From a virus (lineage: Duplodnaviria; Heunggongvirae; Uroviricota; Caudoviricetes): a stretch of 35,745 nt of DNA. The stretch lies in the IMG/VR virus record IMGVR_UViG_2548876857_000008; one strand, 5' to 3'. Shown here piece by piece: positions 31,359-35,745 of the stretch. The first letter of the stretch is position 1. Every line of letters begins with the position of its first letter. The translations under genes were made by a program, and so were the position numbers. The notes under the pieces were generated by a model, which searched no databases, was not told the DNA's origin, and was given only the letters and a program-made list of their open reading frames with translations.

Positions 31359-32070
31359 GTTACCGCTTCAACCGCCGCTCGCCGGGGATGAACGCTTTAC
31401 CCGGCTGGCAAATCTTGCCGCTGAACGCTTCGCACAACTCGATCTGACCGCGCTTCTGATTTACCTGGTGGATCTGGTGGATGCCACGGCGCTGCCGTCG
31501 CTGGCAGAACAGTTCCACGTTCAGGGGCTGGAAGGCTGGCTGTTTGCCCGCGATGAGCGACAAAAGCGCGATCTGATCAAGCAGGCCATTGAGCTGCACC
31601 GCTATCGCGGTACGCCGTGGGCAGTGCGTCAGGTACTGAAGATTCTGGCGTTGGACGGCGATATCAGCGAGTGGTTTGAGTATGGCGGTAAGCCGTACTT
31701 TTTCCGCATGGATGTCACGCTTGAGACGCGCGGGCTGACTGAGGATGAATTTAACGCGCTGATTGTGCTGATCCATGAGTACAAGAACGTCCGCTCAAAG
31801 CTGGAGATGCTGACTATCTGGCTGATTAACCAGAGCCAGATCCCGGTTATCGCCAGTGCTGTTCAGGGCGGCGAGATTGCTACCGTTCTGCCGTGGATTG
31901 CGGAGAGCGTGAGTCAGTCGTCTGCGGTTTATCTGGCGACGGAGTGTTTGAGTGCAGAGGTGGTAACGGTGTTGCCTCCGCTGCATGGCAATGTTGAGCA
32001 GACCAGCGTTATGAGTGTTGGAGCGGGCTGCTGGAGTATTGAGTTTGTCACTGTTTACCCGGAGGAGTAA
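31351..32070 (+). CDS. tail protein (P2 gpI / Mu gp48-like)
   Basis: 239 aa between baseplate J and the tail fibre. Confidence 0.65.
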   Translation: MDKLPLQPPLAGDERFTRLANLAAERFAQLDLTALLIYLVDLVDATALPSLAEQFHVQGLEGWLFARDERQKRDLIKQAIELHRYRGTPWAVRQVLKILALDGDISEWFEYGGKPYFFRMDVTLETRGLTEDEFNALIVLIHEYKNVRSKLEMLTIWLINQSQIPVIASAVQGGEIATVLPWIAESVSQSSAVYLATECLSAEVVTVLPPLHGNVEQTSVMSVGAGCWSIEFVTVYPEE

Positions 32071-33770
32071 TGGCGAGTGAATTTTTTACCATTTTAACCG
32101 CCGCTGGCCGCGCGAAGATTGCTGCGGCGCTGGCGGAACAAAAGCAGATAGTGCTGCAAACAATGGTCGTTGGCGACGGCGGCGGGCAGTATGCCGAACC
32201 GAAAGAGAGCCAGACAAAGGTGGTGCGTGAAGTCTGGCGCGGGTCACTGAATACGCTGAAAATCGCCCCGGAAAACCCGGCGTGGGTGATTGCCGAGGCG
32301 GTACTGCCGGAAGCGAAAGGCGGCTGGTATATCCGCGAGGTGGGATTGCTGGATATGGACGGCGTGCTGATTGCCATCGGCAAGTTCCCGGAAACCTATA
32401 AGCCGAAGCTGCCTGCCGGGGCCAGTAAGCAAATTGTGATCCGCGCTGTGATGGAAGTGACGAACGCGGCGGCGGTAACGCTGATGGTTGATCCGTCGCT
32501 GGTGATGGCAACGGTAGATTATGTGGACTCCAGTATTGAAGAGCACGAAAGATCACATAATCACCCGGACGCAACGCTGACGCAGAAAGGCTTTACGCAG
32601 CTTAACAGCTCCACCAATAGCACGCTGGAAACGCAGGCAGCAACGCCGAAGGCGGTGAAGGCGGCGATGGATAAGGCGAATGAGGCACTGGAAAAAGCTG
32701 GGGCTGATAAAGCGCATAAACATCTGTGGGCCGATATTACCGGGGTGCCGGATGGGACAACGGCGCAGAAAGGGGTTGTGAAGCTTAATAGCTCAACGAA
32801 CAGTACCAGTACGACGGAGGCTGCGACACCGAGTGCGGTTAAGGCGGCATATGACCTGGCGAATGGTAAGGCGGCGGGGAGCCATAAACATGCCTGGGGC
32901 GATATTACCGGGGTACCGGATGGCACTACGGCGCAAAAAGGGATCGTAAAGCTCAACAGCGCGACGAACAGCACCAGTACTACCGAAGCGGCCACGCCCG
33001 GCGCAGTGAAGGCGGCGTATGACCTGGCGAACGGGAAAGCGGCTTCCAGCCATACTCACGCATGGAGTCAGATTACCGGCGTACCGGATGCAACTACAGC
33101 GCAAAAAGGGGTTGTGAAGCTTAATAGCGCGACGAACAGTACCAGTACGACTGAAGCCGCAACGCCGAGCGCGGTTAAGGCGGCGTATGACAAGGCGAAT
33201 ACAGCAATCTCCAGTTTTGCTCTTTTCACGTCGAATGGGACGTTTACGGTGCCAGTCGGGGTAACGAAAGTGATGGTGGAAATGATTGGAGGTGGAGGTG
33301 GTGGCGGCGGCGGTGGTGTGGGTGGTGGTGAGCGAATTGGTTATCCGACAGCAGGTAAACCATCACTTTTTGTTCAAGGGATTGTTGCTGTGAACTCTGG
33401 ACAAAATGTAACCGTCACAGTCGGCGGAGGCGGTGTTGGGGGATCATCAAAAGTAGATACTGGTGGTGGTTCGATGACCGGGAGTAATGGGTACGCCGGA
33501 GGAAACTCAATTTTCTTAACGCTCACTTCTGTTGGTGGTAGCGGCGGCGGCGGTGCATTGCCAGATTCTGGTCCTGGCAACGCATTAAATGAGCCAGGTT
33601 CTGATTCAACGCATGGCTATGGCGGGGGGACTAAGTATAACTCGCAGAAAAATGCCGTAGGTTATGGTTCGAGTGGTGCGGCTGGTACCTCTAAAGGCGT
33701 CAGAACTGTTGAAGGGGACTCTACAGCAGGTGGCAATGGTGCTTCAGGTTTTGTCAGAATATGGTGGTAA
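32070..33770 (+). CDS. tail fibre protein with internal tandem repeats and poly-Gly tract
   Basis: N-terminus resembles P2 gpH / Mu S fibre N-domains. Four tandem repeats of about 56 aa at 32580-33200; Gly run at 33290-33328. Confidence 0.8.
   Translation: MASEFFTILTAAGRAKIAAALAEQKQIVLQTMVVGDGGGQYAEPKESQTKVVREVWRGSLNTLKIAPENPAWVIAEAVLPEAKGGWYIREVGLLDMDGVLIAIGKFPETYKPKLPAGASKQIVIRAVMEVTNAAAVTLMVDPSLVMATVDYVDSSIEEHERSHNHPDATLTQKGFTQLNSSTNSTLETQAATPKAVKAAMDKANEALEKAGADKAHKHLWADITGVPDGTTAQKGVVKLNSSTNSTSTTEAATPSAVKAAYDLANGKAAGSHKHAWGDITGVPDGTTAQKGIVKLNSATNSTSTTEAATPGAVKAAYDLANGKAASSHTHAWSQITGVPDATTAQKGVVKLNSATNSTSTTEAATPSAVKAAYDKANTAISSFALFTSNGTFTVPVGVTKVMVEMIGGGGGGGGGGVGGGERIGYPTAGKPSLFVQGIVAVNSGQNVTVTVGGGGVGGSSKVDTGGGSMTGSNGYAGGNSIFLTLTSVGGSGGGGALPDSGPGNALNEPGSDSTHGYGGGTKYNSQKNAVGYGSSGAAGTSKGVRTVEGDSTAGGNGASGFVRIWW
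32580..33200 (+). repeat. four in-frame tandem repeats (about 168-183 bp) inside the tail-fibre gene
   Basis: Repeated unit TAQKGVVKLNS(A/S)TNSTSTTEAATP(S/G)AVKAAYDLANGKAA(G/S)SH(K/T)HAWGDITGVPDG, with units starting near 32580, 32763, 32931 and 33099. Confidence 0.85.
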
Positions 33771-33773
33771 CAC

Positions 33774-34376
33774 ATGAAATATGCGTATTTTGAACCCTCA
33801 TCAATGAAGGTTTTAGACTGGCTGGATACCGAACAATTATCCTTTGTTTTGCCTGACAGTGTTGTTTCGGTAACTGATGAGCAATGGTGTTATCGTGATC
33901 GTGAATGCTGGGTCAATATTTCAACCACAGAAATCATCACAACACCTCCACCCGGTGATTTTTATCGGCTTGATGGTGATAAGTGGGTGTATGACGCAAC
34001 CAGCTATACTGCTGCGCTAGACGGTGCTAAGTCACTAGTTGTTAAGGCAATCAAGGCGCTACGCGATGAAGTCACTGCCGATTATATCATTATCGGCGAC
34101 TATCACTTTCACAGCGATGCCAGCAGTCGTATCCAGCAAATGTCACTCACCAGGATGGGGCAAACGAAGCAAATCCCCAAAGGCTTAATGTGGCAGACCA
34201 AAAACCTCGGACTTCTCGAGCTAACCAATGAAATCGCGGCGCAGTTTGAGTCCATTACAATGGATCACGATATGCGCCTCTTTGCCAATGCCCAGCGACA
34301 TATTGCCGCCGTTGAGGCGCTGGAAGATATCCTGGCAGTTCAGGAGTATGACTACTCTACGGGGTGGCAACCATGA
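33774..34376 (+). CDS. putative tail fibre assembly chaperone
   Basis: 200 aa immediately after the fibre gene; AT-richer than the structural genes. Confidence 0.5.
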   Translation: MKYAYFEPSSMKVLDWLDTEQLSFVLPDSVVSVTDEQWCYRDRECWVNISTTEIITTPPPGDFYRLDGDKWVYDATSYTAALDGAKSLVVKAIKALRDEVTADYIIIGDYHFHSDASSRIQQMSLTRMGQTKQIPKGLMWQTKNLGLLELTNEIAAQFESITMDHDMRLFANAQRHIAAVEALEDILAVQEYDYSTGWQP

Positions 34377-34825
34377 AGCCGGTGTATCTGGCGTTCTATA
34401 AAGGGCGAGCCGATCATCATGGGTTCGCACGTCTTTCCGACTGGCTGACGCGGCTGGTGACGCGGGGTGAGTATTCTCACTGCGAGCTGGCTGTTGACCA
34501 GGGTAACGGCGAGTTTCTTTGTTATTCGTCGTCGATGCGTGACAAGGGGGTGCGCTGTAAGCAAATGCCGCTGCCACTCGATAAATGGGATCTTATCGCG
34601 CTAAATGCGCTACCAACCAGTGTGGAGCAGTTCTTCCGTCGAAACGACGCCATGAAATATGACTGGCTGGGGGCTGTGGGATTCGTTGTTTTTAATCGTG
34701 GACGGGAGAACAAATATTTCTGTAGCGAGTTTTGCGCAGATTTTCTTGGACTGGTCGATAGCTGGCGTTATTCACCCAATATGCTCCACGCGCTGGCCAG
34801 CAGTATTCAGACTATGAAGTTATAA
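34373..34825 (+). CDS. hypothetical protein with conserved His/Cys residues
   Basis: About 150 aa; GGGGTGG precedes the ATG at 34373. Contains YSHCEL and YFCSEFC. Confidence 0.5.
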   Translation: MKPVYLAFYKGRADHHGFARLSDWLTRLVTRGEYSHCELAVDQGNGEFLCYSSSMRDKGVRCKQMPLPLDKWDLIALNALPTSVEQFFRRNDAMKYDWLGAVGFVVFNRGRENKYFCSEFCADFLGLVDSWRYSPNMLHALASSIQTMKL

Positions 34826-34909
34826 GGGAAACAGCGACCAGAGTCAGGCGGTCACCTGACTCTGACCAGCTAACCCGCAGGAAGTGTCTGCGAGCCGCCC
34901 AGGGCTGCC

Positions 34910-34925
34910 ACTGATGGCCATCAGT
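34910..34925. promoter_or_regulatory. perfect 16-bp palindrome ACTGATGGCCATCAGT upstream of the methyltransferase gene
   Basis: Exact dyad 47 bp before the ATG at 34972; a 10-bp stem-loop lies further upstream at 34839-34864. Confidence 0.3.
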
Positions 34926-34971
34926 CCAATAAGCCTAACAGTTTTTCACATACTGAAAAAGGTTTGCAGAA

Positions 34972-35745
34972 ATGAAAACATTACCCATTATTCCGTGGCC
35001 CGGCGGTAAGCGTCGTCTGGCCAAAAAGTTATTACCGTTATTTCCTGAGCACCAGTGTTATGTAGAGCCATTCTGCGGCGGTGCAGCCTTGTATTTCATG
35101 AAGGAGCCGGTTGAAGCTGAAGTCCTGAACGATATCAACGGCGAACTGGTGAATCTGTACCGTGTGGTTAAAAATCATCTTGAAGAGTTTGTGCGCCAGT
35201 TCAAGTGGGCGTTGAGCAGCAGGCAGATTTTTGAATGGTCGAAAATGACCATCCCGGAGACGCTAACTGATATTCAGCGTGCAGCGCGGTTTTATTATCT
35301 CCAGAAGCAATCATTCGGAGGGAAAGTGGAATCACAGACGTATGGAACGGCGACCACTTCTGCACCACGGCTTAATCTGCTAAGGCTGGAAGAGGAGTTG
35401 AGCGCCGCCCATTTGCGGCTATCACGCACGTTTGTAGAACATTTACCGTGGCGTACCTGCATTGAGAAGTATGATCGCCCGCACACACTGTTCTATTGCG
35501 ATCCCCCGTATTGGGGAACGGAGGGCTACGGTGTTGAATTTGGACTGGAGCAGTACACCCAACTTGCAGAGTTGGCCAGAACGATAAAAGGCAGGATGTT
35601 GATCAGTGTGAACGATATCCCGGAGATGCGTGAAACCTTTGCGGACTTGTCGATTGATACGGTAGATATTCGCTATACGTTGAGCGGTGGGCCTAATGCT
35701 AATCGCTCGAAAGTCAGCCGTGAGCTGGTCATTCGTAACTGGTAA
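34972..35745 (+). CDS. DNA N6-adenine methyltransferase, Dam-like (D12 class)
   Basis: N-terminal PWPGGKRRL (AdoMet-binding motif I) and catalytic DPPY (CDPPYWGTEGYG). Complete ORF; its TAA ends at the window edge. Confidence 0.85.
   Translation: MKTLPIIPWPGGKRRLAKKLLPLFPEHQCYVEPFCGGAALYFMKEPVEAEVLNDINGELVNLYRVVKNHLEEFVRQFKWALSSRQIFEWSKMTIPETLTDIQRAARFYYLQKQSFGGKVESQTYGTATTSAPRLNLLRLEEELSAAHLRLSRTFVEHLPWRTCIEKYDRPHTLFYCDPPYWGTEGYGVEFGLEQYTQLAELARTIKGRMLISVNDIPEMRETFADLSIDTVDIRYTLSGGPNANRSKVSRELVIRNW

Follow-up and report, generated by a model that had tools for sequence, protein, structure and literature searches.

A modular tail fibre with four Phage_fiber_2 units and a predicted glycine-rich tip in a Mu-like prophage with a P2-type baseplate

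The window, that is, the whole stretch of 35,745 nt analysed here, encodes an rve-type transposase together with Mu portal, Mu F and Mu Gp27 proteins, as identified in Pfam scans, and the tail fibre gene it carries belongs to a Mu-like transposable prophage. This gene sits 3' of the Baseplate_J and Tail_P2_I genes detected with Pfam, and on the full contig host genes start approximately 175 nt past the methyltransferase gene that closes the window. The product of ORF 32070-33770 is an ordinary, already catalogued modular phage tail fibre. It matches at 100% the Escherichia coli tail fibre protein WP_024231948.1 of the protein collection, so that the protein has already been deposited and named, and all three of its parts match curated Pfam families. 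A megablast search of the fibre gene against phage genomes returned no match. The features of the locus are collected in Table 1.

Table 1. Features of the tail fibre locus (positions refer to the window)
Feature	Position	Strand	Basis
Tail fibre gene, 566 aa, = WP_024231948.1	32070..33770	+	ORF list; exact protein match; Pfam PF12571 + 4x PF03406 + PF21722
N-terminal baseplate-attachment domain (PF12571, P2 gpH-like), aa 1-149	32070..32516	+	Pfam E 2.4e-56
Shaft unit 1, diverged 53-aa copy, HNH start, aa 163-215	32556..32714	+	Motif and repeat alignment
Shaft unit 2, 56 aa, HKHLW..., aa 216-271	32715..32882	+	Tandem Repeats Finder, alignment
Shaft unit 3, 56 aa, HKHAW..., aa 272-327	32883..33050	+	Tandem Repeats Finder, alignment
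Shaft unit 4 (terminal), 56 aa, HTHAW..., aa 328-383	33051..33218	+	Tandem Repeats Finder, alignment
Predicted receptor-binding domain, TNF-like beta-sandwich and glycine-rich lattice (PF21722), aa 384-566, 30% Gly	33219..33767	+	
G10-V-G3 tract, aa 407-420, the tip's first and longest glycine-rich motif	33288..33329	+	Codons; alignment; model
Cassette exchanged in comparison with E. coli A35, the closest prophage; runs from the end of unit 3 through unit 4 and the tip into the start of the DUF4376 gene	33030..33947	+	blastn, sliding identity
DUF4376 protein, 200 aa, probable fibre assembly partner	33774..34376	+	Pfam PF14301; PHROG tail families; conservation profile

The N-terminal domain (aa 1-149; PF12571 match of 190.3 bits against a gathering cut-off of 23) would dock the fibre onto a P2-type baseplate. 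The tail fibre gpH of phage P2 combines the same N-terminal domain with repeat units of the same kind, at about 48% identity over aa 25-400, and the gene order Baseplate_J, Tail_P2_I, fibre and assembly gene is the same in P2 as here. However, the tip of P2 gpH differs from that of this fibre, tblastn coverage ending at about aa 400, and the head and replication modules are P2-like in P2 but Mu-like in this prophage.

The shaft is presumably built from the four stretches that match Phage_fiber_2 (PF03406) far past chance (E 4.8e-68; score 224.9 bits, cut-off 22); these units span aa 163-383 of a fibre that is presumably trimeric. Tandem Repeats Finder reports a period of 168 nt at 32715-33200 (2.9 copies, 79% matches, score 608). 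An earlier note on this DNA, made from the sequence alone, had described four near-identical 56-aa repeats. The repeats are real and there are four copies, but only three are full 56-aa units, preceded by a diverged 53-aa copy that shares 60% amino acid identity with unit 2. Units 2-4 keep an exact 56-aa period and are 77-89% identical as protein, yet only 73-79% identical as DNA, with longest exact in-register runs of 15-24 nt; units 2 and 3 differ by 22 synonymous and 6 non-synonymous codons. Unit 2 resembles the unit at the same position in the E. coli A35 prophage (0.91 nt identity) more than it does its own neighbours (0.73-0.79), and consequently the unit duplications are old and have not been homogenised. 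A sequence search of the shaft unit against solved structures matched only the Mu fibre S, and neither the Mu cryo-EM paper nor the fibre atlas paper describes the corresponding segment.

Each unit opens with a His-x-His motif (aa 163, 216, 272 and 328) and none follows the last unit; the motifs thus precede the units, although SHKHAWGD had been proposed to end every repeat. That octapeptide occurs exactly once, the other motifs being HNHPD, HKHLW and HTHAW. The first His-x-His (nt 32556) falls just outside the region that the earlier note began at nt 32580. The motifs at aa 216, 272 and 328 are canonical H-x-H-x-W, and two of these three positions are at least 90% conserved in an alignment of 36 sequences; in the same alignment the consensus at the first site (HNH, aa 163) is STNH, and this His-x-His is thus not a family-wide feature. 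Iron sites formed by HxH motifs have been described in R1/R2 pyocin fibres, T4 gp37 and P2 gpV (PMC6116203; PMC8174754), and in the solved structures three chains supply the six histidines that coordinate Fe octahedrally (PMC6116203). By analogy with T4 gp37 and the R-pyocins, the H-x-H-x-W at the start of each full unit could bring together six histidines from three chains around a buried Fe or Zn, and such metal sites would staple the shaft every ~56 residues. Both the shaft fold and the metal sites are thus suggested by analogy. T4 gp37, the R1/R2 pyocins and P2 gpV share with this fibre a recurring conserved H-x-H in a fibrous tail protein, but the surrounding sequence and fold are, as far as known, unrelated, and it is in this fibre that the spacing is a regular 56 aa bound to a sequence repeat.

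Unit number varies among relatives: it ranges from 3 to 9 among the 120 closest homologues and, family-wide, from 2 to 20 among the best 150 of 5,180 cluster representatives carrying the unit. Fibres that are otherwise similar can differ by a clean indel: P0047 and P0003 are 99.7% identical apart from 112 aa, and P0004 and P0011 91.8% identical apart from 56 aa. Such variation, in a prophage that has no G segment, would be compatible with the 168-nt repeats being a contingency-type locus, in which frequent gain and loss of units by slipped-strand or recombinational events varies fibre length or specificity within a population and offsets the missing Gin/G segment. However, clean gain or loss of units is found where the units are near-identical in DNA, and the lineage with a recent two-unit indel has a 774-nt perfect direct repeat, against exact runs of at most 24 nt here; the divergence of the units in DNA and the closer affinity of unit 2 to its A35 counterpart likewise speak against a contingency locus. 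Nor is there length polymorphism of the array among otherwise identical sequences. All five full-length members listed in the 90% cluster have four units and the G10-V-G3 tract; four of them are 566-aa forms of this allele, present on at least 157 contigs and all with four units. The fifth, P0001 (565 aa, 8 contigs), is the sole length variant, being one Gly shorter in a separate (GGC)3 run at aa 492-495. No otherwise identical variant with three or five units was found in 5.8 billion protein clusters, where the next match drops from 1196 to 841 bits. The proposal that the repeats are prone to expansion and contraction therefore does not hold for this allele, with its diverged units, short exact runs and constant unit number in all listed full-length copies, and we regard a contingency-type locus as very improbable.

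The statement that the locus has no invertible host-range segment was confirmed. The ORF list and Pfam scans of part of the window's ORFs contain neither a recombinase nor a fibre fragment on the opposite strand. The Pfam scans found no resolvase or serine invertase next to the fibre gene, whereas PF00239 was found in the positive control locus L004. Flanking inverted repeats are restricted to 14-19-nt pairs at chance level, against pairs of 94-229 nt with 91-97% identity in L004, and the region 33770-35745 has no opposite-strand ORF for an alternative fibre C-terminus or assembly gene, of which L004 has one. Mu, whose head, transposition and morphogenesis genes are of the same type as those of this prophage, possesses gin, the alternative S'/U' genes and flanking inverted repeats; this prophage is without all three. 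Yet the Mu fibre S (PDB 5YVQ, 8JU3, 9KI1) itself carries one copy of the PF03406 unit (aa 111-153, E 1.4e-11 to the unit profile), against four here, and has a different tip. A relative with nine units, moreover, has a resolvase and inverted repeats of 94-229 nt. Because a nine-unit fibre coexists with an invertible segment and Mu S carries the unit, the repeats are not an alternative to inversion, and the idea that they substitute for the Gin/G mechanism is not supported, which also counts against a contingency locus. The repeat array and the invertible segment are independent features. In this prophage a Dam-type methyltransferase occupies the place of com and mom in a close relative. A diversity-generating retroelement was also considered and rejected, since Pfam scans of part of the window's ORFs revealed no reverse transcriptase and the tip does not have a C-type-lectin fold.

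The C-terminal 183 residues are predicted to form a TNF-like beta-sandwich that passes into a glycine-rich lattice, as in gp24 of cyanophage Pam3. Residues 387-557 match PF21722 (Gly_rich_2) by a modest margin (29.1 bits, cut-off 24.3). The AlphaFold2 model of the tip (pLDDT 87, pTM 0.83) is a monomer prediction from a 36-sequence alignment; the alignment was drawn from the full-length homologue search, as a search with the tip only gave one partial protein, poly-Gly words swamping the candidates. The predicted model is compact and confident, with a beta-sandwich that runs on into a glycine-rich motif lattice, and shows a strong match to the solved tip of another fibre, the Pam3 gp24 fold. At E <= 1e-3 it also matches 270 viral predicted structures, mostly named 'Glycine-rich domain-containing protein'. 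Some phage fibres bear C-terminal chaperone domains that are later cleaved off, and a region of 30% glycine, whose sequence found no match among solved structures in a sequence search, might similarly be a removable intramolecular chaperone, or else a disordered low-complexity tail, rather than a receptor-binding domain. Against this stand the confident fold and its match to a solved fibre tip, as well as the alternation of a conserved scaffold with hypervariable segments, as expected of a binding surface: between the invariant Gly columns the conservation profile falls to 9-33%, against 64-80%. A separate downstream partner gene that co-varies with the tip argues in the same direction. We therefore consider a disordered tail or chaperone very unlikely. 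In the receptor-binding domain that we favour, the hypervariable stretches between the glycine motifs are probably the part of the tip that contacts the receptor.

In Pam3 gp24 (PDB 7YPX) the TNF-like domain is likewise joined to a glycine-rich domain, with central loops of the form GGGGxGG and variable distal ends (PMC9608196). Long central G runs with variable distal ends are shared by the two fibres, and Pam3 also has a small partner gene immediately downstream of the fibre gene, as here. The two differ in that the shaft of Pam3 gp24 is a simple alpha-helical one, whereas here a P2-type N-terminal domain is followed by four PF03406 units, and the hosts and phage lineages are unrelated. The glycine-rich tip fold class is thus one that has been solved in Pam3 and is common in phages; the adhesin gp38 of Salmonella phage S16 and the T-even phages (a polyglycine-II sandwich) and the glycine-rich domains of ALK/LTK are among the closest known systems.

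The glycine tract had been read as about 13 consecutive Gly codons. It actually consists of ten Gly, one Val and three Gly, encoded by mixed codons (GGA GGT GGA GGT GGT GGC GGC GGC GGT GGT GTG GGT GGT GGT), and contains no pure triplet repeat beyond a run of three GGC units. Could such a (GGN)14 tract nevertheless be a slippage-prone simple-sequence repeat, in-frame length changes of which tune or switch the tip? The first Gly run does differ between alleles (6, 7, 9 or 10), and P0001 has lost one Gly, albeit in a different run. The mixture of GGA, GGT and GGC with one GTG argues against slippage, as does the identity of the tract in all full-length close relatives. Its glycines fall in columns that are invariant across a diverged family (36 homologues aligned), and in the Pam3 gp24-like model the tract has a pLDDT of 92-97 with no helix or strand assigned; comparable motifs of Pam3 make up the hydrogen-bonded core of its lattice (PMC9608196). 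A slippage tract is accordingly given hardly any credence, and G10-V-G3 is better regarded as the first and longest conserved glycine-rich scaffold motif of the tip. As judged from its sequence and the predicted model, the glycine run is structural rather than a mutable tract.

The glycine tract (nt 33288-33329) is the exact point at which many draft assemblies break, a pattern that could reflect heterogeneity of the reads and is a point in favour of slippage. That single lysogen populations are heterogeneous in the tract, the array or both, and that this explains the breaks, seems to us exceedingly improbable; were it true, a Mu-like phage without Gin would have a low-level, slippage-based diversification of fibre tip or length. 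Neither the repeats nor the glycine run shows any sign of being a rapid host-range switch.

Variation of the tip appears to have a different origin. Up to about nt 32790, nucleotide identity to the A35 prophage lies at 0.95-0.98 in most 60-nt windows, with dips to 0.87-0.88 in two others; it is 0.73-0.80 over 32850-33029, then disappears, and returns at 33948, within the DUF4376 gene. The fibre of A35 contains three units, and its tip is 46% identical to the one here; the tips of all listed close N-terminal relatives are at most 53% identical. The G+C content is 0.57 upstream but lower in the tip (0.51) and in the 5' part of the DUF4376 gene (0.40), and the tip cassette is absent from 5,426 complete E. 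coli genomes. The cassette replacement itself is thus established at the DNA level, its junctions having been mapped against a single relative, A35. The right junction lies inside the DUF4376 gene, so that the tip would move with its matching partner. On the left, the junction is located within the conserved repeat array, which would provide homology between unrelated fibres, and out-of-register recombination in the array may alter unit number as a by-product.

The DUF4376 protein has a variable N-terminal part of ~58 aa and a conserved C-terminal part in the conservation profile. In some homologues, e.g. P0217, an N-terminal Caudo_TAP part (PF02413) is fused to DUF4376; the protein of the window matches PF14301 only, without a match to PF02413, and displays no similarity to the Pam3 gp25 or Mu Tfa fold.

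Taken together, the data make it likely that this is a modular fibre of a Mu-like prophage whose baseplate is of the P2 type, with a Phage_fiber_2 shaft and a structural glycine-rich tip, which changes by cassette swap. Host range would accordingly be altered by recombinational replacement of the tip cassette, with no programmed switch. The value of these observations lies mainly in a correct annotation, and little beyond it. The limits of the cassette (~nt 33030-33947) are useful for host-range prediction and fibre engineering, and poly-Gly runs in phage fibres are best taken for structural motifs rather than mutable tracts.

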